The position numbers were made by a program, and so were the translations under genes. From the NCBI RefSeq assembly GCF_000025925.1, contig NC_014033.1:2940001-2972000 (forward strand): a stretch of DNA of 32,000 nucleotides, given 5' to 3'. Below are positions 1 to 31,959 of this stretch, piece after piece. This DNA comes from Xylanibacter ruminicola 23. Lineage in GTDB: Bacteria > Bacteroidota > Bacteroidia > Bacteroidales > Bacteroidaceae. Positions within the stretch are counted from its first letter, which is position 1, and each line of letters opens with the position of its first letter. Below the pieces are notes generated by a model. That model saw only the letters and a list, made by a program, of their open reading frames with translations, had not been told where the DNA came from and ran no database searches.

Positions 1-1668
1 CAGTGGTTCTACGATCGTTATCACATGTCGGCAGAACTGCCAAACAGCGACCCTGCTACACGTGGCGTAAACCGCAACTCATCGAAGACCTTCAACTGGA
101 ACCTCAACAACACGCTGACATGGGATCGCACCTTTGCTAATCTGCATCATGTCACAGTAACTCTGGCTCAGGAGGCTGAGGAGAACCGTTATTGGAGCGA
201 CAATATCTCTGCACGCAACATCACTCCTACCGATGTGCTTGGTTTCCACTATATCTCGGGTGCCAACAAGGAGCAGAGCTCATTCTCAACCAACGACACT
301 CACTACACAGCAGCCGCTTATCTGGGTCGTGTATTCTATGGTTTCATGGATCGCTACATGCTGACTGCTACTGTACGTCGTGACGGTTATTCAGCATTCG
401 GACAGAACAATCCTTGGGCCAACTTCTGGTCATTAGGTGCCAGCTGGGTTCTTTCTGAGGAAAAATTCGCTCAGGATTGGAAGTGGCTCGATATGGCTAA
501 GCTGCGTTTGAGTTATGGTACCAATGGTAACCGCTCACTCGCCGATACATATCTGGCTCTCTCTAACTTGGCTAACGGTGGTCTCTATGCTTACTATAAG
601 TACGGTTCAACCTCACAGGAGGTGCTCAATGCTTTGAGCGTAGACCGTCTGGGTAACCCCAACCTGGAGTGGGAGAAGACCTCATCATGGAACTTCGGTA
701 TCGACTTTGCCGTTCTCAACAAGCGTCTCTCTGGTAGCATTGATATCTACCACAAGAAGACCCACGATATGATTATGTCACAGCGCCTGCCAAACTTCAC
801 AGGTTTCAGCAGCATCACTACCAACCTTGGTGAGGTTACCAACACCGGTTTTGAAATTACGCTGAACACCAAGAATATCGAAACAAAGGACTTCAAGTGG
901 GGCACCTCTCTCGGATTCTCATACAATAAGAATAAGATTAAGCACCTGTACTACGAGTACGACGAGGATGGCAAGGAGATGGACGATACTAGCAACGGTT
1001 GGTTCATTGGCAAGCCTATCGGCGAAATCTGGTACTGGAAGACCGACGGCATCTGGCAGGCCAACGAGGCTGAGGAGGCTGCATTGGTGAACCAGAAACC
1101 TGGTGATCCAAAGGTTGTAAATGTTTATACCGAAGACGATAAGATTCTGGCCGACGGTACACGCGTACCTGTTTACAACGACAAGGACCGTGTTTACCAG
1201 GGTACTACCCAGCCACCAATCTACTGGAACATGCGTAACGATTTCCAGTACAAGGACTTCACCTTCTCGTTCTCAATGTACAGCTACATGGGCCACAAGA
1301 GCCTGAGCGGTAACTGGCTGAATGGCGATAACTCAGGTTCTATGTTCACTCAGACCTGTAATACCTACAAAAAGGAATACTGGACACCTGAGAACCCAAC
1401 CAACGAGTATGCTCGTCTGAACGCTGTTGGTCCTTCTGGTGTAACAGGTATTAATAAGCTCTACAACCGCAGCTTCGTACGTGTGGACAACATTACACTG
1501 GGTTACACTATCCCACGCGACATCACTAACAAGTGGGGTATCCAGCGTGTACATGTAACTGCCGGTATCCACAATGCATTCACTATCGACAGCTGGGAAT
1601 ATGGCGATCCTGAAACAGGAGGTTTTGCCAACCGTCAGTTCCAATTCGGTCTTAATGTAACACTTTAA
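1..1668 (+). CDS. SusC/RagA-family TonB-dependent outer-membrane transporter, C-terminal barrel portion (5' end lies outside the window)
   Basis: The frame is open from base 1 (QWFYDRYH precedes the ORF-track Met at 25), so the gene starts upstream of the window. The sequence is SusC-type barrel (LRLSYGTNGN, GNPNLEWEKTSSWNFGIDF, NITLGYTIP, terminal FQFGLNVTL). A SusD-like gene starts 13 nt after the stop. Confidence 0.9.
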   Translation, partial: QWFYDRYHMSAELPNSDPATRGVNRNSSKTFNWNLNNTLTWDRTFANLHHVTVTLAQEAEENRYWSDNISARNITPTDVLGFHYISGANKEQSSFSTNDTHYTAAAYLGRVFYGFMDRYMLTATVRRDGYSAFGQNNPWANFWSLGASWVLSEEKFAQDWKWLDMAKLRLSYGTNGNRSLADTYLALSNLANGGLYAYYKYGSTSQEVLNALSVDRLGNPNLEWEKTSSWNFGIDFAVLNKRLSGSIDIYHKKTHDMIMSQRLPNFTGFSSITTNLGEVTNTGFEITLNTKNIETKDFKWGTSLGFSYNKNKIKHLYYEYDEDGKEMDDTSNGWFIGKPIGEIWYWKTDGIWQANEAEEAALVNQKPGDPKVVNVYTEDDKILADGTRVPVYNDKDRVYQGTTQPPIYWNMRNDFQYKDFTFSFSMYSYMGHKSLSGNWLNGDNSGSMFTQTCNTYKKEYWTPENPTNEYARLNAVGPSGVTGINKLYNRSFVRVDNITLGYTIPRDITNKWGIQRVHVTAGIHNAFTIDSWEYGDPETGGFANRQFQFGLNVTL

Positions 1669-1681
1669 AATGTAGAATCGT

Positions 1682-3712
1682 ATGAAAATCAAAAAGAACA
1701 ATATACTCCGCGGAGGACTCATGTTAGCCCTTGCGGGAACCATGGTAGGATGTTCGGACGGCTTCCTTGAGCAGGATCCACTGTCATTCTATGAGCCAGC
1801 AACTACCTATAGCACGGAAGCCGGTCTGCAGGCTGCTTTGGCACAGTGCGACAAACAGTTAAAGACATACCGTATCGACGGTAACTGGAACAACGTTGGT
1901 ATCTTTACCAACTACCTGATGTCGGATGTAGGCATGTACGCCAAGACCGATATGGGTGGTGGCTTCCAGGACAACTTCGATGCCAAGCTCACACCAACCT
2001 CTGGTATGGCAAGTGGTGGCGATGCCAACTACATGCAGCGCTTCTGGGATCAGGGATTCAGCATGGTAAAATATGCCAATACCATCCTGACTTATATCGA
2101 TCAGGTGAAAGGTCTTGATGATGCTACTCGCGATGCTTATAAAGGTCGTGCATATTTCCATCGTGCCTACGCTTACTACAACCTGGCACTCCAGTTTGGC
2201 GATATTCCTTTGATAACAAAGCTAATCAGTGTGCCCAAGCGCAACTATACATCAAGCAGCAAGGAAGCTATCTTCAAGATGCTGGTTCACGATTTGGAGT
2301 TCGCTGTTCAGCACGTTCCCGCTCAGGCCAAAATGACCTATGTAGGACAGGTAAATCAGGAAGCATGTATGCACCTGCTTGTAAAGTGCTATCTCGCTGT
2401 TGGTGAGTATGCCAAGGCCGAGTCGGTAGCTACCGACCTGATTAACAACCACGGTTTAAAGCTGATGACCGAGAACTTTGGTACATGGCAGCCCTCTGGC
2501 GCCGAGAACACTTGGAAGGTAACACGTAACGTGGTTTGGGATTTGCACCGCACACCCAACATCGCTGATCCTGCCAACAAGGAGACCATCATGATGATCT
2601 CTAACTCGAACGACCAAGACTTCACTACCTATAATGTGATGCGTGCCTGCTTTGCTCACTGGAGTAATGGTATCATCCGCGATCCTCACGGACTGGGTGG
2701 TCCTGGTAAGAACATTGCCCGTAACAACTGGGAGTACAACGACACTCTCGACTGGGTACGTGCTGCCGGACGTGGTATTGCTGTGAACCGTACATCGTAC
2801 TATTACAACAAGACCATCTGGAACTACGACGGTGAGACCGACTGGCAGGACCTGCGCCACAACCGTAAGGTAGGTAACTGGATGGAGATGGAAGACTTTA
2901 AGTACAACAACAAGAGTTCAGACTGTTACGGCCAGAACTATCAGCTTTATGCTACCGAAGACTATGCAGATCCTTCAGATCCCTCAAAGATTCTCGTACA
3001 CAAGGGCGATATCCTCTGCTCTGACACCATCCGTAGCTGGTATCCTACTCCATTGTATCAGCTCTACATCCTTGATACTCCAAACGAAAACAATACTGGT
3101 GCCAACCAGTTCCAGGGTGCATCAGGTAAGGGTGCCAATGGCGATATGTACCTGTTCCGTCTGGCCGAGACTTATCTGCTGCGTGCAGAGGCTCGTTTCT
3201 ATCAGGGCAACGCCTCAGGCGCTGCTGAAGACGTGAATGCCATTCGTAAGCGTGCCAACGCCAAGAAGATGTACACCACAGTTACTATCGGCGACATTAT
3301 GTCGGAGCGCGCACGCGAGCTCTATCTCGAAGAGTTCCGCCAGGCAGAGATGGTACGTGTAAGCTGGTGTCTGGCTCGTAGTGGCAAACCCGATGAGTGG
3401 GGCAACACCTACGATCTGAATACTTGGGATAAGCAGGAAGGTACCGACCTGAACGGTGGTAGCTACTGGTATCGTCGCTGTGTTAACTACAACGTATTCA
3501 ACCATGACTATGGTAAGGGTCAGCAGGGTAACCAGACCTTCGAGTACAAGATTAACAAGCACAACTTGTTCTGGCCAGTTCCTAACTCGGCTATTACCGC
3601 CAACAACAAGGGAACACTTCGTCAGAACTATGGCTACGACGGCTATAATGAGAACATCCCCATGTTTACCAACTGGGAGGACGCTGTTGCCGATGAAGAA
3701 TCTGCAGATTAA
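1682..3712 (+). CDS. SusD/RagB-family nutrient-binding outer-membrane lipoprotein
   Basis: 676 aa. It has a lipoprotein signal with lipobox (LALAGTMVGC|SDGF), lies directly downstream of a SusC gene, and has typical SusD-like composition (LFRLAETYLLRAEARFYQGN, ERARELYLEEFR). Confidence 0.9.
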   Translation: MKIKKNNILRGGLMLALAGTMVGCSDGFLEQDPLSFYEPATTYSTEAGLQAALAQCDKQLKTYRIDGNWNNVGIFTNYLMSDVGMYAKTDMGGGFQDNFDAKLTPTSGMASGGDANYMQRFWDQGFSMVKYANTILTYIDQVKGLDDATRDAYKGRAYFHRAYAYYNLALQFGDIPLITKLISVPKRNYTSSSKEAIFKMLVHDLEFAVQHVPAQAKMTYVGQVNQEACMHLLVKCYLAVGEYAKAESVATDLINNHGLKLMTENFGTWQPSGAENTWKVTRNVVWDLHRTPNIADPANKETIMMISNSNDQDFTTYNVMRACFAHWSNGIIRDPHGLGGPGKNIARNNWEYNDTLDWVRAAGRGIAVNRTSYYYNKTIWNYDGETDWQDLRHNRKVGNWMEMEDFKYNNKSSDCYGQNYQLYATEDYADPSDPSKILVHKGDILCSDTIRSWYPTPLYQLYILDTPNENNTGANQFQGASGKGANGDMYLFRLAETYLLRAEARFYQGNASGAAEDVNAIRKRANAKKMYTTVTIGDIMSERARELYLEEFRQAEMVRVSWCLARSGKPDEWGNTYDLNTWDKQEGTDLNGGSYWYRRCVNYNVFNHDYGKGQQGNQTFEYKINKHNLFWPVPNSAITANNKGTLRQNYGYDGYNENIPMFTNWEDAVADEESAD

Positions 3713-3761
3713 AAGATTGTTCAGACATATTAAGGTAATTTGTTAGTATTTCTAAGGTGGA

Positions 3762-3798
3762 GGGGCGGCCTATAATCCTTTAGGCTGCCCCTTTTATT
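3762..3798 (+). terminator. Rho-independent terminator after the susC/susD pair
   Basis: The stem GGGGCGGCCTA (3762-3772) pairs with TAGGCTGCCCC (3781-3791), giving 11 bp with one G-T wobble and an 8-nt loop. TTTTATT follows. Confidence 0.6.
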
Positions 3799-3840
3799 AA
3801 AAAATCACCTACTGAATCGCGCTATTTAGAAAGTTATTTA

Positions 3841-3848
3841 TATCTTTG
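3841..3848 (+). promoter_or_regulatory. Bacteroidetes-type -7 promoter box (TATCTTTG) for the enzyme operon
   Basis: TATCTTTGc matches the Bacteroides sigma-A -7 consensus TAnnTTTG and lies 22 nt upstream of ATG 3870. I found no clean -33 TTTG at the 20-nt spacing. Confidence 0.45.
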
Positions 3849-3869
3849 CAACGAAAACTAACGAACAAT

Positions 3870-4985
3870 ATGAGAAAACTATTATTATTGGCATGTTTGC
3901 TGAGCACCATGATGGTTCAGGCCAAGCGATGGACTACCGACGAGGTAAAGGACATGATACGCCTGGTTAACACCTACTGGCAGACCAATAATCCGGCCGA
4001 GGTGCGCTCTTTCTGGGACAACGCCGCCTACCATACAGGTAATATGGAGGTGTACAAGTTGCTGCAGGATGAGCAGATGCTGAACTACAGCATTCGCTGG
4101 GCGGAACACAACCAGTGGAAAGGTGCCACCGAACCCAACCCCGCCAACTGGAAATACAAGAACTACGGTGAGGGACAGGACTATGTACTGTTTGGCGACT
4201 GGCAGATATGTTTCCAAACGTACATCGACCTTTACAACCTGGCCCCTGACGAGAAGAAAGTGGCTCGTGCCAAGGAAGTGCTGGGTTACGAGGCTGACTC
4301 GAAAGCCAACGACTACTGGTGGTGGGCCGATGCACTCTACATGGTGATGCCCGCACTCACTAAGATGTACAAACTGACTGGCGACACCAAGTATCTGCGC
4401 AAACTCTACGAAAACATCTGCTACAGCGATAGTATCATGCTCGACAAGGAGACTGGACTGTACTTCCGCGATGGCAAATACATCTACCCAAAGCACAAAA
4501 CCGCCAAGGGCAAGAAAGACTTCTGGGCACGTGGCGATGGTTGGGTGCTGGCCGGACTGGCCAAGGTGTTACAGGATATGCCCGAGACTTACGTCCGTCA
4601 GCCATTCTTTGTTGAGAAGTACGTGAACCTGGCACGCGGCGTGAAGAAGTTGCAGCAGCCACAGGGCCACTGGACCCGCTCGATGATGGACCCAGAGCAG
4701 GCGCCTGGCTATGAAACCAGCGGTACAGCCTTCTTCTGCTACGGCTTGTTGTGGGGCGTTAATCACGGTTATCTGTCGAAGAAGGAGTTTGCCACCACCA
4801 TCGATAAGGCGTGGAACTATCTCACCACCATCGCCCTGCAGAAGGACGGTAAGGTGGGTTACGTACAACCCATCGGCGAGCGCGCTATTCCCGGACAGAC
4901 AGTAGATGCCAACTCGCAGGCCAACTTTGGTGTTGGTGCCTTCCTGCTGGCCGCATGTGAATACGTGAAATACATTGGCCGATGA
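3870..4985 (+). CDS. GH105/GH88-family unsaturated rhamnogalacturonyl/glucuronyl hydrolase (YteR-like)
   Basis: I moved the start to ATG 3870, which gives the signal peptide MRKLLLLACLLSTMMVQA; the track start at 3846 is a TTG. The motifs DYWWWADALYMVMPALTKMYKLTGD and FWARGDGWVLAGLAKVL are characteristic of the (alpha/alpha)6 GH88/GH105 fold. Confidence 0.8.
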   Translation: MRKLLLLACLLSTMMVQAKRWTTDEVKDMIRLVNTYWQTNNPAEVRSFWDNAAYHTGNMEVYKLLQDEQMLNYSIRWAEHNQWKGATEPNPANWKYKNYGEGQDYVLFGDWQICFQTYIDLYNLAPDEKKVARAKEVLGYEADSKANDYWWWADALYMVMPALTKMYKLTGDTKYLRKLYENICYSDSIMLDKETGLYFRDGKYIYPKHKTAKGKKDFWARGDGWVLAGLAKVLQDMPETYVRQPFFVEKYVNLARGVKKLQQPQGHWTRSMMDPEQAPGYETSGTAFFCYGLLWGVNHGYLSKKEFATTIDKAWNYLTTIALQKDGKVGYVQPIGERAIPGQTVDANSQANFGVGAFLLAACEYVKYIGR

Positions 4986-25294: not shown

Positions 25295-25327
25295 CTTAAA
25301 TCTTGTTAATATTCTAAAGTTTTAGAG
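25295..25327 (+). repeat. Left copy of a ~33-bp direct repeat bracketing blaI-blaR1
   Basis: CTTAAATCTTGTTAATATTCTAAAGTTTTAGAG starts immediately after the coaX stop codon and includes operator O1. Confidence 0.7.
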
Positions 25328-25393: not shown

Positions 25394-25768
25394 ATGAAAG
25401 AAAAGAAACAATTGACTAAGGCTGAAACGCAAGTAATGAACATACTCTGGTCGTTGCCAGAGAGTAAGGGTTATTCGGCTGAGATTATGGAGAAATTCCC
25501 TGAGCCCAAGCCTGCTCTTACCACGCTGCTCACATTCTTGAAGATACTCAAGGAGAAAGGCTTTGTGAGCTCGGAAAAGATAGGAAAAGCACAGCTTTTC
25601 AGCACCACCATCAGCAAAGAGGATTACACACGCGCCTATATGAAAGAGGTGAAGAATACATTCTTTGGTGGCTCGTTCGCCTCACTCGTTTCGTTCTTTG
25701 CCAAGGATGAGCAGCTGAGCGACGATGAGGTTAGTGAGATTATGGAAATCATAAAGAATCGCAAGTAA
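25394..25768 (+). CDS. BlaI/MecI/CopY-family winged-helix transcriptional repressor
   Basis: 124 aa. The N-terminal wHTH (LTKAETQVMNILW...) and the size are typical of the family. Its stop overlaps the start of an M56 peptidase gene as TAATG. Confidence 0.85.
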   Translation: MKEKKQLTKAETQVMNILWSLPESKGYSAEIMEKFPEPKPALTTLLTFLKILKEKGFVSSEKIGKAQLFSTTISKEDYTRAYMKEVKNTFFGGSFASLVSFFAKDEQLSDDEVSEIMEIIKNRK

Positions 25769-27126
25769 TGACTGAATTTCTGACCTACGACCTGAAGGTA
25801 GCCGTGCTGATAGCGGTATTCTATTTCTGCTATCGTCTGCTGATGGAACGCGAAACGTTTCACAGGCTTAATCGTATAGTGCTGTTATCGTCCATCGCAC
25901 TCTCGCTCGTTCTGCCCCTTTGTGTTATCACTTTCCATGAAACGGTAGAGGTAGAACAAACGACAGCAACGGCTAATCCTAACCCACAATCGCCCATTAC
26001 GGATATGTCAGCCGTAACAGCCGCAGATAGCGTGCAGATGGCTCCTGTTGATCAGTCAGCCGTTATCTTTGCCATCTTTATAATTGGTGTACTTTGTAGA
26101 TTGTTCTTTATAGCCAACAGTTATCGGCTTTTGCGCCGAATTATTAGTGATAGTGAGCAACATACGTTGGAGGATGATGTAACGCTGGCAGTTGTCGACC
26201 TGCCTGTTGCACCGTTCTCGTGGATGCGTACCATCGTGTTAAGCCGGATTGACTACGATGAGCGCAACCCTTCGATACTTGCCCACGAGCGTGGACATAT
26301 CCGCCTGCATCACAGCTGGGATATCGTCTTCGTCGAAATGCTTACGGCCCTGCAATGGTTCAATCCTGTGGTATGGCTCCTGCGTCGCGACCTGCGAACC
26401 GTCCATGAGTACGAAGCCGATGCATCCGTCCTCTCGTCAGACTCAGACGTGAGTCAATACATTCAACTACTGATGCGGAAGGCGATGGGTACAAAGGCCA
26501 GTATCCTAGCCAATGGCATCAACAACAGCACCATTAAAAAACGAATTTTCATGATGTTAAAACATAAGTCAAACAGGCGAGCATGGCTCAAAGCCCTTTA
26601 TATCGCCCCCATAGTAGCAGTATCGTTGGTAGCAACGGCAAAGACGGTGACTGAGTTTAAGCCCAAACCAGCCAATCCTGTTACGCCCACCGCTGTCTCG
26701 AACGACACTATAAACAAAAGTAACACACTCGTATGGGTGTTAACCGATGAGGAGAAAAAGCAAGCCAAGACAATAACTCCTGGAGCACCTGGCTCTATCA
26801 ATATCAGCGCGGCTATACACGACAATGGTGTCAAGCAGAATTTCGATGGTTCCTGCTATATAGTCCGTGTACCAAAGGGTTGCTGGATAGAAGACGACGA
26901 AGATTCCTGGATAGAAGTAAGCTGGGACAGATTCTTATTCGCTGGCAAGACCACCAAGATACAGCTCGATGGTGTACCTTTCGATGAGAATAGCGCACCC
27001 AAATTGCATTATTCTGTCCTCAAGAAAATCGAAAACCACCGCAAAGGCAATGTCAACGTGGTAAATCTGATTACCAAGCCCGTATCCATTCCATCGGGTA
27101 TAAAGAATAACGCGTCAAAAAAATAA
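25768..27126 (+). CDS. BlaR1/MecR1-like M56-family membrane metalloprotease signal transducer
   Basis: 452 aa with N-terminal TM helices, the zinc motif HERGHIRLHH (HExxH) and EYEAD downstream. The C-terminal ~170 aa are extracytoplasmic and not recognisable to me. Confidence 0.85.
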   Translation: MTEFLTYDLKVAVLIAVFYFCYRLLMERETFHRLNRIVLLSSIALSLVLPLCVITFHETVEVEQTTATANPNPQSPITDMSAVTAADSVQMAPVDQSAVIFAIFIIGVLCRLFFIANSYRLLRRIISDSEQHTLEDDVTLAVVDLPVAPFSWMRTIVLSRIDYDERNPSILAHERGHIRLHHSWDIVFVEMLTALQWFNPVVWLLRRDLRTVHEYEADASVLSSDSDVSQYIQLLMRKAMGTKASILANGINNSTIKKRIFMMLKHKSNRRAWLKALYIAPIVAVSLVATAKTVTEFKPKPANPVTPTAVSNDTINKSNTLVWVLTDEEKKQAKTITPGAPGSINISAAIHDNGVKQNFDGSCYIVRVPKGCWIEDDEDSWIEVSWDRFLFAGKTTKIQLDGVPFDENSAPKLHYSVLKKIENHRKGNVNVVNLITKPVSIPSGIKNNASKK

Positions 27127-27147
27127 CCCCAATCATTACCATGCTTA

Positions 27148-27198
27148 CCCCCTCGCCCGCTGAAGGTTTTCTTCTCTCTCTCCATCAGCAGCGAGGGG
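27148..27198 (+). terminator. Long-loop GC hairpin after blaR1 (possible terminator)
   Basis: CCCCTCGC (27148-27155) pairs with GCGAGGGG (27191-27198), and an inner GCTGA/TCAGC pairing adds to it. The loop is pyrimidine-rich. The hairpin is followed by CTTAAATCTTGTTATTATT, with no clean U-tract. Confidence 0.35.
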
Positions 27199-27231
27199 CT
27201 TAAATCTTGTTATTATTCTAAATTTTAAGAT
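27199..27231 (+). repeat. Right copy of the ~33-bp direct repeat
   Basis: CTTAAATCTTGTTATTATTCTAAATTTTAAGAT has about 29 of 33 positions identical to 25295-25327. It retains the left operator half-site TTCTAA, but the right half is degenerate. Confidence 0.7.
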
Positions 27232-27264
27232 ATTTCTTTGGATTTTTTTATTTTTGCCGAATTA

Positions 27265-27296
27265 TTTGTTTGGATAATTTCTTTTTTGTATATCTG
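27265..27296 (+). promoter_or_regulatory. Candidate promoter P1 upstream of the GC-rich block
   Basis: TTTG (27265-27268), then 20 nt, then TATATCTG (27289-27296), which has one mismatch to TAnnTTTG. The -33 context CGAATTATTTG is duplicated at P2 (CGAATAATTATTTG). Confidence 0.35.
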
Positions 27297-27299
27297 CCG

Positions 27300-27455
27300 C
27301 TTGGCGACAATGCCGTGCCACGTAGAGATAGTTCCGCTATATGCCATATCGCAAATCAACGGATAATCGCCTGCCACAGAACCGTCCCCTGGCAGGTTAC
27401 ACCCGCAGGTTTTAATAAAGCCACGAAACAGCCCCTACCATCACACTCTTTTTCA
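27300..27455 (+). ncRNA. Candidate structured non-coding RNA or leader upstream of the abi gene (putative RNA partner)
   Basis: A GC-rich block of about 155 nt is embedded in AT-rich spacer. It contains an 8-bp hairpin, GCCTGCCA (27369-27376) pairing with TGGCAGGT (27390-27397), with a 13-nt loop. GGCGA (27303-27307) can pair with TCGCC (27367-27371). A competing CCTGC/GCAGG pairing (27370-27374 with 27405-27409) is possible. The block ends at CTCTTTTT. No convincing protein-coding signal. Boundaries are approximate. Confidence 0.3.
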
Positions 27456-27484
27456 ATAATCAACTCAAATATTTCGAATAATTA

Positions 27485-27516
27485 TTTGGCTGATTGAGAA
27501 TAAGTCTGTACCTTTG
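27485..27516 (+). promoter_or_regulatory. Canonical promoter P2 for the abi gene
   Basis: TTTG (27485-27488), then 20 nt, then TACCTTTG (27509-27516). It lies 50 nt upstream of ATG 27566. Confidence 0.55.
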
Positions 27517-27565
27517 TCGGCAGAATTAAAAAACTGATAATAACCAGCAAAATTTGTCTATCACA

Positions 27566-28255
27566 ATGAAGTATACAGACTTTGAAAACATTATATCAGC
27601 CGACCGCATGAGAAAATATCTCGTGGCCTGCAATAACGATACACGTAGGGCAATGACCCTCTATCGCCATAATCTTAAGCTCTCACAAGAGATGTTTACA
27701 ATGATTAGCTGTTTCGAGGTAGCACTTCGTAACAGAATCGACATGGAGATGAAACAACATTGGGGTAACGACTGGTTGCGAGATTTTATTATGCCAGGTG
27801 GTCCTTTTGCTACTGACGGAAGAGCTGATGGTACAAGGAAAATTATTAAAAAGGCGTATGATGATTTGATGCGCACCAATACCTATAGTCATTCTAAATT
27901 GCTTTCTAAAATGGAATTTGGCATTTGGAAATACATGTTTAATAATGTACAATATAGGTTGGGAGGTAGGTATCTGCTGAAAATTTTTCCCAATAAACCT
28001 CGCACTACAAAAAATAACAAGTTTGACAATTCTACAATCTTCTTAGAGTTGGATTATATAAACAATGTTCGTAATAGAATTGCTCACCATGAGCCAATTT
28101 GTTTTGGATGTCCGATTTGTATTGATACAACCTATGTTCTACGTAATTATGCCCGCATATTTACCTTGTTTGGTTGGATGGGGATAGATGCACCGCGATT
28201 GTTATACGGACTTGATCATGTTGGTGAAGAATGTGGCAAAATCATGTGTGTGTAA
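27566..28255 (+). CDS. Abi_2-family (AbiD/AbiF-like) abortive-infection protein, HEPN-type predicted RNase
   Basis: I moved the start to ATG 27566 because the track start at 27554 is a TTG. 229 aa. The N-terminal pattern (YLVACNNDTRRAMTLYRHNLKLSQEMFTMISCFEVALRNRI) is typical of the short Bacteroidetes 'Abi-like' proteins. The C-terminal NNVRNRIAHHEP carries an Rx4H HEPN motif. G+C is visibly lower than in the neighbouring genes. Confidence 0.75.
   Translation: MKYTDFENIISADRMRKYLVACNNDTRRAMTLYRHNLKLSQEMFTMISCFEVALRNRIDMEMKQHWGNDWLRDFIMPGGPFATDGRADGTRKIIKKAYDDLMRTNTYSHSKLLSKMEFGIWKYMFNNVQYRLGGRYLLKIFPNKPRTTKNNKFDNSTIFLELDYINNVRNRIAHHEPICFGCPICIDTTYVLRNYARIFTLFGWMGIDAPRLLYGLDHVGEECGKIMCV
28070..28090 (+). 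other. HEPN Rx4H catalytic-type motif (RNRIAHH) within the abi gene
   Basis: Codons CGT AAT AGA ATT GCT CAC CAT are in frame with ATG 27566. Confidence 0.6.
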
Positions 28256-28305
28256 CGTTCAGAATGTTAATTATTTAGATAAAATAGAAGAAAAATTGCA
28301 AAATA

Positions 28306-28337
28306 TTTGGAGTGTATTAATTAAATTCTTATCTTTG
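28306..28337 (+). promoter_or_regulatory. Canonical promoter P3, 50 nt downstream of the abi stop
   Basis: TTTG (28306-28309), then 20 nt, then TATCTTTG (28330-28337), followed by C as in the other promoters of this window. Confidence 0.45.
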
Positions 28338-28358
28338 CACCGTTCAGTCCTGGTAGTC

Positions 28359-28391
28359 CCTGAAGTTTTTCAAACTATCAGGTGTTTTTTT
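28359..28391 (+). terminator. Rho-independent terminator (for abi and/or a ~45-50 nt P3 transcript)
   Basis: CCTGAAGTTT (28359-28368) pairs with AAACTaTCAGG (28372-28382), giving 10 bp with one bulged A and loop TTC. TGTTTTTTTG follows. Confidence 0.6.
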
Positions 28392-28455
28392 GCTCAAAAT
28401 TTCACCCTGCCCGTTTTTACAACATACTCAGTACAACGCCAAGTTGCGGGTATAC

Positions 28456-28490
28456 AAAAAAATGCCCCGCGTCGTCGCGACGAAGGGCAC
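28456..28490 (-). terminator. Minus-strand terminator-like GC hairpin
   Basis: TGCCC (28463-28467) pairs with GGGCA (28485-28489). The inner palindrome TCGTCGCGACGA (28472-28483) adds to the stem. A7 upstream on the plus strand gives a U7 tract after the hairpin on the minus strand. Confidence 0.45.
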
Positions 28491-28544
28491 TTGAACTTAA
28501 AAATACGATAACGTTCTTATTATGTAATAAGTATCCGCATGAAT

Positions 28545-28592
28545 ATAAAAAACAGGAACTACCAGTTTCGGATACTGAAACTGATAGTTTCC
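28545..28592 (-). terminator. Minus-strand rho-independent terminator (long hairpin plus U-tract)
   Basis: GGAACTACCAGTTTC (28555-28569) pairs with GAAACTGATAGTTTCC (28577-28592) in a ~14-bp imperfect stem with loop GGATACT. Plus-strand AAAAAACA just upstream gives TGTTTTTTAT after the hairpin on the minus strand. Confidence 0.55.
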
Positions 28593-28662
28593 TACTTTGG
28601 AACCAAACAGATTATAATATGGCTGATGATGACATGTGGATAGTTTCTCGAAAAGCGAATCC
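28545..28662 (-). ncRNA. Candidate small RNA on the minus strand (~115 nt)
   Basis: A minus-strand -7 box TATATTTG (plus-strand CAAATATA, 28669-28676) lies about 80 nt upstream of the 28545-28592 terminator. No credible ORF lies between them. The 9-mer GATAGTTTC occurs twice (28583 and 28639). I found no -33 box, and the 5' end is a guess. Confidence 0.25.
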
Positions 28663-28924
28663 CGGCTTCAAATATATTTACACAATTAAATTCGGAGGCG
28701 ATGAGGATTCCTTACCCCGATTTTGTTCCCTAGTTAGGGGAAATTTGCTACCTCACTAGGGAAATATTTTTTCTATTAATACCCGCAAAATGCGGGCGCG
28801 CACGGGCATCATAATACAATTAAAAATATTTTACCTTTTGATGATTATAGCCCTTATATGGATAGTACGGAAGTATTTGTGCGATAATCGTAAAGTATCT
28901 GTTAGATTGCCGTAATGCAGGGGT

Positions 28925-28956
28925 AGAAACGTGGAAACAGGGAAACGTGGAATCAG
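28925..28956 (+). repeat. Four tandem octamers (AGAAACGT GGAAACAG GGAAACGT GGAATCAG)
   Basis: Read directly from the sequence. The 11-mer GAAACGTGGAA occurs twice (28926-28936 and 28942-28952). Confidence 0.7.
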
Positions 28957-29007
28957 GCCAGTATTCCAAAACCCAAAGCAAGGGGGCTCGCGATGAGTCC
29001 CCTTCTT
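28956..29007. repeat. Copy 1 of a ~52-56 nt hairpin-containing repeat element
   Basis: GGCCAGTATTCCAAAACCCAAAGCAAGGGGGCTCGCGATGAGTCCCCTTCT, with stem GGGGGCTC pairing with GAGTCCCC. Confidence 0.75.
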
Positions 29008-29080
29008 TATTTGCTACAAAAATGGGGATTCCCCTACCGCATAGTAGGGATTTGTATGCAAATTTCAAAAACGGATGCTT

Positions 29081-29088
29081 TACCTTTG
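29081..29088 (+). promoter_or_regulatory. -7 promoter box (TACCTTTG) for the small lipoprotein gene
   Basis: TACCTTTGc lies 32 nt upstream of ATG 29120. Confidence 0.45.
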
Positions 29089-29119
29089 CAGCATAAATGT
29101 ATGATTAAAGCTTAGGATT

Positions 29120-29440
29120 ATGATGAAAAGGATTAGAAAAATGGCCATGGTGGGCGTGTTGGGAATTGTGATGAGTTCGTGTGCATCGATGTTTTTAACG
29201 GTTACCGATAAGGCGGCACGCATACAGCAGGGTATGACCAAAGATGAGGTAACAGAGATTATGGGCCGGACACCCGACTACCGACGATTTGCCAACGGGC
29301 ACGATGAATGGGAGTATCGTACGCTGCTTAACAACGACGATTACGATGTGGTGGTGCTCGATTTCCGCAACGGTCGTGTGGCACAGATGGACTCGTTCCG
29401 CGAGGTTCGCCACTATCACCCCGATGGCGAGAAGAAGTAG
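29120..29440 (+). CDS. Small lipoprotein, BamE/SmpA_OmlA-like
   Basis: 106 aa with a lipoprotein signal and lipobox (GIVMSSC). GMTKDEVTEIMGRTPD ... VVVLDFRNGRVAQMDSF resembles the SmpA/OmlA fold signature. Confidence 0.65.
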   Translation: MMKRIRKMAMVGVLGIVMSSCASMFLTVTDKAARIQQGMTKDEVTEIMGRTPDYRRFANGHDEWEYRTLLNNDDYDVVVLDFRNGRVAQMDSFREVRHYHPDGEKK

Positions 29441-29441
29441 C

Positions 29442-29497
29442 GGCCAGTTTTCCAAAACCCAAAGCAAGGGGGGCTCAGCGATTGAGTCCCCCATTCT
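29442..29497. repeat. Copy 2 of the hairpin repeat element; likely terminator of the minus-strand TonB-dependent receptor gene
   Basis: GGCCAGTTTTCCAAAACCCAAAGCAAGGGGGGCTCAGCGATTGAGTCCCCCATTCT, with stem GGGGGGCTCA pairing with TGAGTCCCCC. On the minus strand the hairpin is followed by CTTGCTTTGGGTTTTGG. It lies 45 nt past the receptor stop. Confidence 0.7.
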
Positions 29498-29541
29498 ACT
29501 GTGTGTTTTCCCCACACTATCAGCAGGCATCTGCCCTCTGA

Positions 29542-31959
29542 TCAGAAATCAAGTCGGTAGAAGATGTTTGGGAATGCGATACCGCCATCGTCTATGCGGA
29601 CATCGCGAGTCCCCAGGTCGAAGCGCTGGTACTGTGGCACCTTGGCGCCCAGAACGTTCAGACCCTCGAAAGCGATGGTGTGGCTCACCTTACGCTTGTT
29701 GATCTTATAGCTGATGGTGAGATCCACTACGCCTGTTGGATCGAAGCGCTTGGTGAATTCCTCGCCTTCCTTGTAGATAGGATCATCATCAATGATACCC
29801 ATGTTCACACGGGCACGCATCTGATCTACGTCAACCGGTGTATAGCGCAGACCGCCCTGGATGCTGTACTTGGCACTGACGTTTAACACGTTCTTACCAA
29901 TCATCCACTCCTTACCGGCCAGGATCTTGAACATGAAACCACGGTCGTACAGCTGGTTGCGCCATACCTTATCCTGTCCGCGATACTCTGCCTTATAGAG
30001 CGAGAAGTTGGTCTGTCCGAAGAATCCATGCGACATGTAGTGCTCCAAGGTGATGTCACCGCCATAGTTGCGGGTATTGCCCTTGTTCACCAGTGGCTCG
30101 TCGGTATAGTTGTAGTAGCGGTTTGTCACACAATAGGTGCTGCCGTTGATGCCCACTGGCGTGTCGAATCCATACTCGTAGAAGGCATTCACGCGCAGTG
30201 TCAGGTTGCTGTTGAACTTATGCATGTAGGTGGCATGCAGGTGGTGTGCCTTGGTCAGTCCCAGGTCCTTGTTGACCAGACGGTCGTTGCCGTCGCGATA
30301 GAAGTAAGCGTCGAGCTTCTCAATCATTGAGTGCAGACCGTAACCCATCGAGAAACTGTTCTTCTCGTTTGGTTCCCACTTGAAGCTCACGCGTGGCTCA
30401 ATCGAGAGGTCCTTCGACAGCAGGAAATAGTTGCCAGAGATACCTGCTGACAGACTGAACTTGTCGCTCAGGTTAAAGATGTTATGCCAGAACAGGTTGG
30501 CCAGTCCGGTGTTGTCCTTCATCTTGGTATATTCAGTCATGGGGTTCACCGTGTCGTAGAGCTTGTCGTGCGAGCGGTAGTAGAGGTTGAAGAAACGATG
30601 CGAGTATTCACCACCGAACTGTGTGAGCCACTTGCTGGTGACCTGCTTCGAGAGCTCTGTGTTGAATACCAGTCGGTCTTCGTTCATCTGCTGCTGGCTG
30701 TAGGGGTACATCTTACTATTTGGGTTGTTGGGATCCTCGTATGCCAATGGCTGCTTGATGGTACCATTTTCAGTGCGTGCAAATCCATAGTAATGCATGT
30801 TGCTCTTCAGGTGCTGCATATTGTAGGCCACAGTGGTGCGCCAGGTCCACTTGTTGTTGAAGTGGATTTTGTGAGATGCACCTGCCAGAATCTGCGTCAG
30901 TTTGCTGTCATTATTCGAAGCGTCGTAAACCGAATGCGCATCTTCAATCTTCAATGGGTCGTCGTGGTTAGTATCAAACAGACCTAAACCGAAAATAGAG
31001 AAGGTACCAGCACGCTTGGTGGGGAAGTTCAGCTTGACTGAGAAATCTTGGAAGCCCAAGTGCGAACCCTCAGTGTCAACCAGTCCCAGTTTATCTACCA
31101 GTGATGTGAAACCATATCGGTAGTTGATGATATAACTACTGTTGTTCTTGCGAGAGATAGGACCCTCGAGTGTCAACTCCTCTGATACGGTACCAATCTG
31201 CAGGATGTTCTCGTGCTTGGAGTTGTTTCCCGAGCGCATCTTCACGTCGAACACACCACTCAGGGCGTTGTTGTAGTTGGCGTTGAAGGTCGAAGTAAAG
31301 AAGTCGCTGTTGGCAATCACGTTCGAGTTCATACCGCTCACCAGTCCGTAACCGGCATTCCACATATCGTTAAAGTGGTTGGGTGTAAACACCTCAACGC
31401 CCTCAATGCGGTACTGCATGCGCTCGGGTGCATTACCATGAATCGAGAGTCCGCTACCGCCAGCATCGCCCGATACGCCGGCAAACGACATCACCAGTCG
31501 GGCGGGGTCGTTATAACCGCCTGCAAATCGGCTGGCCTCTTCCATCGAGAGCATCACACCACCGGTGAGTACCGACGGGTTAACGGTGGCCTCCTTGTTT
31601 ACACGGGGCTTAACCACCACCTCCTTCAGCTCGGTGCTGTTCTCGCGCAGAGCAATCTCCAGCACTACCTCCTTGGGTCCCGAAATCAGGATTTCCTTCA
31701 TCACACTGGGCTCATAACCAATATAGTTGGTCTCGATGGTGTAACGTCCGCCCTTGCTTATCTTGATGGTAAAGTTACCATCCATGTCGGCAACAGCAGC
31801 CGCATTCTCTAATTCTGCAATTTTTACCGTAGCACCAATCAGCGCTTCGCCTGTAACGGCATCTTTTACAGTTCCACGCAGGGTTTCGGCCTGCACGCTC
31901 ATAGTTCCGCAAAGTAAAATAGCGGTCGACAAGAGGTTAATAATCGTTGTTTTGCTCAT
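29542..31959 (-). CDS. TonB-dependent receptor with N-terminal carboxypeptidase-regulatory-like domain (not SusD-paired)
   Basis: 805 aa. It has a signal peptide (LLCGTMSVQA), a CarboxypepD_reg-like domain (TLRGTVKDAVTGEALIGATVKI...DGNFTI), a plug, and a barrel ending in FPNIFYRLDF. Confidence 0.9.
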   Translation of the reverse strand: MSKTTIINLLSTAILLCGTMSVQAETLRGTVKDAVTGEALIGATVKIAELENAAAVADMDGNFTIKISKGGRYTIETNYIGYEPSVMKEILISGPKEVVLEIALRENSTELKEVVVKPRVNKEATVNPSVLTGGVMLSMEEASRFAGGYNDPARLVMSFAGVSGDAGGSGLSIHGNAPERMQYRIEGVEVFTPNHFNDMWNAGYGLVSGMNSNVIANSDFFTSTFNANYNNALSGVFDVKMRSGNNSKHENILQIGTVSEELTLEGPISRKNNSSYIINYRYGFTSLVDKLGLVDTEGSHLGFQDFSVKLNFPTKRAGTFSIFGLGLFDTNHDDPLKIEDAHSVYDASNNDSKLTQILAGASHKIHFNNKWTWRTTVAYNMQHLKSNMHYYGFARTENGTIKQPLAYEDPNNPNSKMYPYSQQQMNEDRLVFNTELSKQVTSKWLTQFGGEYSHRFFNLYYRSHDKLYDTVNPMTEYTKMKDNTGLANLFWHNIFNLSDKFSLSAGISGNYFLLSKDLSIEPRVSFKWEPNEKNSFSMGYGLHSMIEKLDAYFYRDGNDRLVNKDLGLTKAHHLHATYMHKFNSNLTLRVNAFYEYGFDTPVGINGSTYCVTNRYYNYTDEPLVNKGNTRNYGGDITLEHYMSHGFFGQTNFSLYKAEYRGQDKVWRNQLYDRGFMFKILAGKEWMIGKNVLNVSAKYSIQGGLRYTPVDVDQMRARVNMGIIDDDPIYKEGEEFTKRFDPTGVVDLTISYKINKRKVSHTIAFEGLNVLGAKVPQYQRFDLGTRDVRIDDGGIAFPNIFYRLDF

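Follow-up and report, generated by a model that had tools for sequence, protein, structure and literature searches.

The stretch of DNA analyzed here is a 32-kb window of the Xylanibacter ruminicola 23 genome (GCF_000025925.1, contig NC_014033.1, positions 2,940,001 to 2,972,000 of the forward strand; coordinates are window positions, and L numbers such as L001 or L030 designate comparison loci). It contains a gene of the Abi family, abi, which starts with ATG and codes for a compact HEPN protein of 229 amino acids (aa). Downstream of abi, on the same strand, we found a second gene that would produce a small RNA (sRNA) of about 50 nucleotides (nt), a candidate RNA antitoxin (Table 1). An earlier note, made from the bare sequence, had described abi as a solitary AbiD/AbiF-like HEPN gene, with its own promoter and terminator and with no protein partner, and had suggested that its neutralizing partner is probably an RNA encoded in one of the flanks.

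Table 1. Coordinates of the abi gene, its small RNA gene, and similar hairpins on viral contigs.
Feature	Position	Strand	Basis
abi gene, putative ribonuclease (RNase) toxin, 229-aa compact AbiF-like HEPN protein	27566..28255	+	Pfam, PADLOC, homologues, AlphaFold2, Foldseek
HEPN Rx4H motif, R169-N-R-I-A-H174	28070..28087	+	Conservation in 40 relatives; RNRIAHH = 28070-28090
N-terminal motif, E51-V-A-L-R55-N56	27716..27733	+	Conservation in 40 relatives; role presumed
abi promoter: -33 TTTG 27485-27488, 20-nt spacer, -7 TACCTTTG 27509-27516	27485..27516	+	Sequence reading
sRNA promoter: -33 TTTG 28306-28309, 20-nt spacer, -7 TATCTTTG 28330-28337	28306..28337	+	Sequence; box in all 62 same-strand loci
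sRNA, ~50 nt, candidate RNA antitoxin	28342..28392	+	5' end placed from the -7 box; covariance match 28337-28393
Hairpin, 34 nt	28349..28382	+	RNAalifold and covariation
U-run (T7), end of sRNA	28385..28391	+	T-run after the stem in 90/92 copies
Orphan hairpins on viral contigs	L081 2350-2400; L087 8500-8554; L095 1838-1894; L083 4229-4283; L086; L088; L094; L096-L102		

The 229-aa protein matches the Pfam family Abi_2 (PF07751) above its cutoff (33.6 versus 25.6 bits; E = 6.1e-8), over profile positions 21 to 182 of 184. Among the PADLOC profiles, the best match was PD-T4-5 (2.7e-11), aligned at positions 6 to 204 of 309 only, and AbiD was matched as well (8.9e-5). Searches with the single sequence gave no match in NCBIfam or in the PDB. 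Homologues fall into more than 2,200 clusters at 90% identity, almost all of 229 to 230 aa, and all those listed carry PF07751. A scan of species-representative genomes, whose counts are lower bounds, put the number of encoding stretches at 574 or more, the great majority of them from Bacteroidales of the rumen and gut. Prevotella sp. MA2016 (L001) encodes an identical protein (100%); abi and sRNA together are 99% identical between this genome and the window, and the flanks are 94% identical.

Conservation was assessed in an alignment of 40 diverse relatives, down to 28% identity. The RNRIAHH string, in which the earlier note had recognized an Rx4H motif, stood up well, with R169, N170, R171, A173, and H174 conserved in at least 90% of the sequences. 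A second motif near the N terminus, E-x2-L-R-N, has an invariant R55, and E51, L54, and N56 are at least 90% conserved. The AlphaFold2 model built on this alignment is all helical (mean predicted local distance difference test score [pLDDT], 96.5) and places the Rx4H at the end of helix 155-173, as in the HEPN superfamily. A Foldseek search of this model against the PDB returned a single significant match, chain A of 8VZ6 (8vz6_A), the PbAbiF dimer bound to its noncoding RNA (ncRNA), with E = 7e-4, a probability of 1.00, a template-modeling (TM) score of 0.63 (query normalized), and 15% identity; the next match had an E value of 0.4. The fold search was needed because the 40-sequence profile reached 8VZ6 only as a weak match (E = 0.62). 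These results confirm that the protein belongs to the Abi_2/HEPN family and has the AbiF fold.

Both flanks of abi were then set against those of 80 homologous loci. The upstream flank is conserved in none of them except the near-identical L001, so that no upstream partner is apparent in the layout of the window. In the downstream flank, one block (approximately 28291 to 28400) recurs in more than 50 loci at 72 to 92% identity. This 60- to 110-nt block, which contains the RNA element, is the only flank sequence conserved among related loci, and its identity exceeds what would be expected of coding DNA at 56 to 86% protein identity. Clustering of the neighboring open reading frames (ORFs) revealed no conserved protein partner, in agreement with the earlier note; the largest cluster, a repeat-domain surface protein, is present in only 13 of 81 loci. 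The outcome that the note had named as contrary to its proposal, a protein neighbor always paired with abi and flanks lacking conservation, is the reverse of this picture, with no protein neighbor conserved and a conserved RNA block. Its description of both flanks as devoid of credible ORFs was broadly right. ORFs of 75 to 125 aa can be called mechanically in the flanks, and the two tested (28382-28759 and, on the minus strand, 28820-29068) had no Pfam match, but the 864 nt downstream of abi are not empty: they contain the sRNA gene, a terminator-like element that is repeated, and, on the minus strand, two hairpins that look like terminators.

The promoter of the sRNA starts about 50 nt past the abi stop codon and has the same geometry as that of abi, and the hairpin begins 94 nt past the stop. 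Its outer stem of 9 bp (28349-28357 with 28374-28382) is followed by an internal loop, CCC (28358-28360) opposite a single A (28373), and by an inner helix of UGAA (28361-28364) with UUCA (28369-28372) closed by a short loop (28365-28368). The sRNA also has a conserved 5' tail, GCAnCGUUnAnU, and the window copy folds with a minimum free energy of -15.5 kcal/mol (z = -3.9). The terminator that had been drawn for abi at 28359-28391 is real, but it had been misdrawn, since it is the inner part of this hairpin, which belongs to a separate RNA gene.

An alignment of 42 distinct copies of the sRNA revealed a family-wide fold made of the 9-bp outer stem, C-(C/U)-C opposite a single A, an inner helix UGA(N)/(N)UCA, and a terminal loop of 2 to 6 nt that is often GNRA-like; RNAalifold, run without any hint, returned the same structure that had been drawn by eye. 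Standard pairs occupy 96.3% of the cells and compensatory (both-side) changes occur at 7 of the 13 pairs, values that none of 500 column shuffles reached, and pairing falls to 24 to 42% when the partner is shifted by one to three columns. In a second set composed of phage and distant copies, whose alignment was fitted to the model, 8 of the 13 pairs have compensatory changes and 96.4% are paired. Several columns are fixed as well. A10 and U12 ahead of the stem, U47 behind it, the unpaired C22 and C24, and A36 of the inner helix never vary, and A37, also unpaired, is conserved in at least 90% of the copies. At pair 17-42, 33 of the 42 sequences have G.U and 5 have A.C; these wobbles are isosteric and would mismatch if the opposite strand were the RNA; hence, the plus strand is the functional RNA.

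The signals around the hairpin are also constant. In a census of 92 copies, a perfect TAnnTTTG box lies 11 nt before the stem in 85, a -33 TTG is found at a distance of 17 to 23 nt in 82, and a run of at least four Ts follows the stem in 90; the promoterless copies are mostly second or third units of tandem arrays. Comparative analysis shows, as far as sequence can tell, a separate sRNA gene with a covarying structure beside abi, running from promoter to U-run. Rfam scans of the flanks, of the 81-nt element, and of the whole window found nothing relevant, so the sRNA is neither the abiF motif RF03085 nor a member of another curated family.

A covariance model built for the sRNA (R1) was run on the window and the loci, 495 kb in all. 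It has a single match in the window (28337-28393; 69.8 bits; E = 4e-14), and a match of at least 58 bits lies beside abi in 79 of the 80 loci as well; no comparable match was found elsewhere, except for two extra copies in L030. That locus (319-4707) contains a cassette-like array in which a 162-nt promoter/palindrome element, a gene, and a 101-nt sRNA element are repeated three times, the genes being PDDEXK_2 transposase-like, abi, and a DUF4325 pair.

Two layouts can be distinguished among the 81 sources (80 loci plus the window). In 62 to 63 of them the RNA is downstream of abi on the same strand, at a median distance of 67 nt from the stop codon, and in 15 to 16 it is upstream and divergent, with its 5' end 50 to 100 nt from the ATG. 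Ten loci carry two or three RNA copies in tandem, and relatives with 36% identity on viral contigs retain a diverged hairpin at the divergent position. In at least 11 of 17 loci with the divergent layout (L060-L066, L068, L070, L071, L073-L077, L079, and L080), the abi strand carries a TAnnTTTG box a short way past the sRNA terminator, some 150 nt before the abi ATG.

A search starting from the RNA gave a similar picture. The sRNA pattern was scanned in metagenome contigs, and loci were counted as decidably lacking the gene if they had at least 1.1 kb on both sides. An abi homologue adjoins the RNA in 79 of the 96 decidable loci (25 more were undecidable), with the divergent upstream unit in 63 of these 79. 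Among the 17 without a homologue, at least 12 are modules in which the toxin ORF has been deleted or truncated and the RNA gene is intact. In these decayed modules (L108, L114, L116, L121, L126, L148, L162, L173, L197, L199, L211, and L217), the sRNA gene and its promoter are complete, and abi is reduced to its first 10 to 16 codons or to an internal fragment. Loss of the toxin with retention of the RNA is suggestive of the asymmetry expected of a toxin and its antidote. Judged by gene order, both searches show a near-obligate linkage of RNA and gene, i.e., the adjacent co-occurring structured RNA of type III toxin-antitoxin (TA) systems (79/80 protein first and 79/96 RNA first). The proposal of a flank-encoded RNA partner is supported by this unit, which reaches from promoter to terminator, covaries, and is linked to the gene.

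The hairpin is also present in phages. Pattern scans of IMG/VR located it on 17 viral contigs (a scan with a 3-nt loop pattern found nothing), and 15 of the 17 have no abi homologue in the DNA fetched; abi accompanies the viral hairpin only in L082 and L224, which are the same contig. The phage nature of several of these contigs was confirmed. The hairpin of L081 directly follows the major head protein gene, and the same junction is found in L094 and L102. In L087 it neighbors the large terminase gene and immediately precedes a tRNA-Met gene, and in L095 it sits between tRNA-Asn and tRNA-His within an array of 26 tRNAs on a 166-kb contig; other copies are near exonuclease VIII, baseplate hub, or endolysin genes. 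Phage copies do not have the bacterial CGUU tail, and some are devoid of promoter or U-run, while others have their own Bacteroidota-type promoter. All the same, they retain the bases of the internal loop and the inner helix and have compensatory changes in the stem.

Promoters in Bacteroides follow a -33/-7 consensus, to which the abi promoter conforms. The site picked out in the earlier note is a good one of the Bacteroidota type, and a sigma-70 scan does not list it, as expected for a site of this type. A TAnnTTTG box is found within 200 nt of the abi ATG in 56 of the 62 same-strand loci. The segment with the abi promoter is missing from the 99%-identical module of L001: in place of the 334 nt at 27205-27538, Prevotella sp. 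MA2016 has 79 unrelated nt (2895-2973 of L001). A scan of the window found no terminator-like site between the abi stop codon and the sRNA promoter; therefore, the abi mRNA probably extends across the hairpin, which it would contain once at its 3' end, and the U-run probably terminates this transcript too.

In the window, abi is surrounded by housekeeping genes rather than by a defense island: the neighbors code for a pantothenate kinase, BlaI/BlaR1, a BamE-like lipoprotein, and an outer membrane protein with a CarboxypepD_reg domain (TonB-receptor-like). We considered a boundary of the module at 28480, where homology to L001 ends, and rejected it as the result of an IS3-like insertion in L001; in Prevotella sp. 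MA2016, an IS3-like transposase ORF occupies the equivalent of 28480, where the contig ends. The first of the two minus-strand terminator-like hairpins (28557-28589) holds in its arms AAACTATCAG and CTGGTAGT, the strings of the sRNA stem arms in swapped order; it is not matched by the RNA model and is not conserved in the other loci. The second, followed by a T-run (28467-28480), lies 75 nt past the sRNA and is conserved in L001; no convincing minus-strand gene leads into it. A 31-nt direct repeat (97%; 28956-28986 and 29442-29472) precedes a GC-rich hairpin; the BamE-like ORF (29120-29440) apparently has one of the copies as its terminator, and the other is in noncoding DNA upstream of that ORF. 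Another direct repeat, of 32 nt (91%; 25295-25326 and 27199-27230), flanks the blaI-blaR1-like pair (25394-27126).

The literature agrees with what the earlier note had said of AbiF proteins, namely, that they are toxins restrained by an ncRNA and the likely source of Cas13. AbiFCd, from a prophage of C. difficile, is toxic and is neutralized by direct binding of RCd22, an ncRNA of phage phi027 that is encoded upstream, is cotranscribed with AbiFCd, and contains two abiF motifs (RF03085) (PMC12373285). Two further reports, which cite Zilberzwige-Tal et al. (2025), present PbAbiF, from a Prevotellaceae bacterium, as a dimer solved with two ncRNAs and regard AbiF as a toxin of type III from which Cas13 is proposed to descend (PMC12737573, PMC13064643). 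AbiF processes its own ncRNA (PMC12737573), and R210 and H215 of PbAbiF, the equivalents of R169 and H174, are needed for activity (PMC12373285, citing Zilberzwige-Tal et al., 2025). The abiF motif also occurs in some phage genomes (PMC9964418). The existence of PbAbiF means that the note's view of short Bacteroidota versions as uncharacterized is too broad, although it holds for the 229-aa clade.

For comparison, we collected PbAbiF-type loci (L090 and L093) through relatives of the partial 8VZ6 sequence obtained from the weak profile match (E = 0.62). In both, RF03085 immediately precedes the gene on its own strand (58.5 and 55.7 bits); the -7 box is followed after 11 nt by the hairpin and its U-run, and the ATG comes 17 nt further on. 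In L090 (2447-3034; also in L091 and L092), RF03085 is intact (58.5 bits) and the abi ORF is cut to 177 aa, with a sequence that diverges beyond residue ~165, ahead of the Rx4H; many of the PbAbiF relatives in databases are short in a similar way.

The module of the window resembles these systems (PbAbiF/AbiFr and AbiFCd-RCd22) in its Abi_2/HEPN protein with an Rx4H and the same fold, in the lack of a protein partner, and in the adjoining hairpin RNA of ~35 nt followed by a U-run and occasionally present in tandem; the 11 nt between -7 box and stem are also found in the PbAbiF-type locus L090. Both RNAs are associated with Abi_2 proteins, have hairpins of similar length ending in ...GGGU with some copies in phages, and share the blocks CCCG..AGCCUCU, UCAA, and CGGGU and a closing CCC...GGGU. 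However, the protein is of 229 aa versus ~300 aa in PbAbiF, at 15% identity, and the RNAs differ in topology. The window sRNA has an outer stem of 9 bp, a 3/1 internal loop, and the UGA/UCA inner helix, and RF03085 has a stem of 6 bp, a bulge, a helix of 3 bp, and an internal loop of 6 nt on the 3' side (CAAAUC). With the same tool that scored canonical RF03085 sites at 58.5, 55.7, and 37.6 bits, this model had no hit with E ≤ 10, whether in 26500-29800 or in the 81 nt at 28325-28405, and none at gathering score in the whole window; conversely, R1 did not match the RF03085 sites. The window sRNA is thus not an RF03085-type cognate ncRNA. Nor is it an upstream, same-strand, cotranscribed one: RNAs of its type have their own promoter and are downstream or divergent, unlike AbiFr, which is in the 5' leader of its gene. 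The similarity between the two RNAs could reflect either common descent or convergence on homologous protein surfaces. Within 1.5 kb of Abi_2 genes on viral contigs (L228-L258) whose products are 21 to 32% identical to the window protein, neither RF03085 nor the new motif is present, and the Abi_2 superfamily may include further types of RNA partner, or members with none.

More distant parallels exist. PD-T4-5, a distant relative of AbiF/D encoded on an E. coli plasmid, provides abortive infection against T4 (PMC9519451); like the 229-aa protein, it is a single protein-coding gene and it is the best PADLOC profile, a comparison that stands at the profile level only. In ToxIN and other type III TA systems, an RNase toxin adjoins its structured RNA antidote, in some cases as tandem RNA repeats, and there are phage genomes with an antidote-like RNA and no toxin. 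The fold of the ToxIN toxin is unrelated, however, and the ToxI repeats are upstream, cotranscribed, and processed by the toxin, whereas the RNA of the window module is usually a single unit with its own promoter.

Considering all this, we interpret the locus as an AbiF-like module for TA and abortive infection, made of a protein and an RNA, with type III-like logic and with an RNA and a layout of its own, and give this reading a probability of about 0.7. By analogy with the characterized systems, we infer RNase activity, toxicity, direct binding of the RNA by the protein, the trigger, and phage defense. The toxin would be a compact AbiF-like HEPN ribonuclease, and the RNA would be made from its own strong consensus promoter just past the gene. 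Its hairpin would bind the Abi protein, probably a dimer, and block the Rx4H active site, as AbiFr does in PbAbiF. Read-through of the abi mRNA would add one hairpin copy in cis at the 3' end, where it would also terminate the message. A phage that stops host transcription or speeds up RNA decay would make the RNA pool drop and free the RNase, leading to arrest or death of the cell before the phage matures.

Several points weigh against this reading. Since the RNA is not the characterized abiF motif, the transfer of the mechanism rests on protein homology at 15% identity and on analogy. The hairpin and U-run would serve as an ordinary abi terminator in the window layout, and the two extra sRNA copies of L030 adjoin unrelated genes. 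In the divergent loci, antisense or transcription interference control could add to the proposed mechanism or even dominate it. Finally, the study by Zilberzwige-Tal et al. (2025) may already cover the 229-aa clade and its RNA.

The alternative that survives best, although we consider it rather improbable, is that the sRNA regulates abi mainly through effects on RNA (antisense pairing or interference with transcription, as in type I systems) and not through binding of the protein. It draws on the divergent loci, where the abi box beyond the sRNA terminator would give abi a 5' leader fully complementary to the sRNA. In the layout of the window (62 to 63 of the 81 sources), though, the sRNA has the same sense as abi, with no overlap between the two. 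Selection on the folded hairpin, with conserved unpaired bases and isosteric G.U and A.C wobbles, points to recognition of shape, and the orphan copies of phages retain the hairpin and not the 5' tail. In addition, homologous AbiF proteins bind their RNA directly (PMC12373285).

A simpler possibility is that the hairpin is only a cis element, an intrinsic terminator or 3' stabilizer of the abi mRNA without an antitoxin role, the protein being controlled in some other way or not toxic at all. The stable fold, its U-run close behind the stop codon, and the lack of a terminator in between are what such an element would look like in the window. Yet a consensus promoter sits 11 nt before the stem in 85 of 92 copies, and the loop has invariant unpaired bases, for which a terminator has no need. 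The divergent units (15 to 16 of the 80 genome loci and 63 of the 79 loci from metagenomes) are upstream of abi and cannot terminate it. Copies that persist after loss of the ORF, and those in phage tRNA arrays that have no U-run, argue in the same direction and make this explanation quite unlikely.

Less credible still is a role of the RNA as cofactor, guide, or substrate of a processing RNase or a proto-Cas13-like RNA-guided enzyme. The hairpin has the size of the repeat handle of a CRISPR RNA (crRNA), and AbiF, which processes its ncRNA, is the proposed Cas13 ancestor (PMC12737573). CRISPR-Cas13 has two HEPN domains and an array, and here the protein has a single Rx4H and the window holds no repeat array. 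A guide would need a variable, spacer-like segment, and none is left in an RNA with a conserved 5' tail, a U-run at the 3' end, and a loop of 2 to 6 nt, grounds on which the guide RNA reading was rejected; the remnants that kept the RNA and lost the toxin also fit better with the logic of an antidote. Lastly, the idea of an attC-like DNA recombination site that mobilizes abi as a cassette, suggested by the unrelated genomic contexts of the module, the many contigs of ~1 kb or broken beside it, and the L030 array with the element after three different genes, was rejected as the least plausible of all, given the promoter and U-run kept in one orientation, the strand-specific wobble pairs, the common divergent position, the lack of a linked integrase, and the phage copies inside tRNA arrays and after a capsid gene.

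The orphan hairpins of phages might be antitoxin decoys that keep the short-AbiF RNase of the host inhibited during infection, a tentative idea, with the odds somewhat against it. It draws on the viral contigs without an abi homologue, on the bases retained in the internal loop, and on the compensatory changes in the stem. Their embedding in tRNA arrays or late operons would give high expression and precise processing. The parallel is the pseudo-ToxI of phage PhiTE (PMC3475682). Were the idea true, Bacteroidales of the gut and rumen would offer a natural and widespread example of RNA mimicry directed at a system of the AbiF type.

Proteins of the AbiF type rank with the commonest single-gene defense candidates, and their recognition as toxins neutralized by RNA and as the likely root of Cas13 is recent. 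The kind of system described here was already known, and the protein can be annotated as Abi family. As far as the literature and Rfam 15 show, what is new is the cognate RNA motif, its layout as an independent gene, and the orphan copies in phages. The known picture of AbiF is widened by a large compact clade, most of it from rumen and gut Bacteroidales, whose abi genes would be scored as partnerless in motif-based surveys because their RNA is absent from Rfam. An RNA unit that is independent of the gene and either downstream or divergent provides natural comparisons of how RNA supply is coupled to toxin control, and two RNA motifs with shared blocks and different topology are material for the study of RNA-protein coevolution. 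As a HEPN-RNA pair, a protein of 229 aa with an RNA of ~50 nt would also be very compact, which should suit structural studies and engineering. The phage hairpins, if they are decoys, would form with these modules a directly testable arms-race pair in the gut microbiome.

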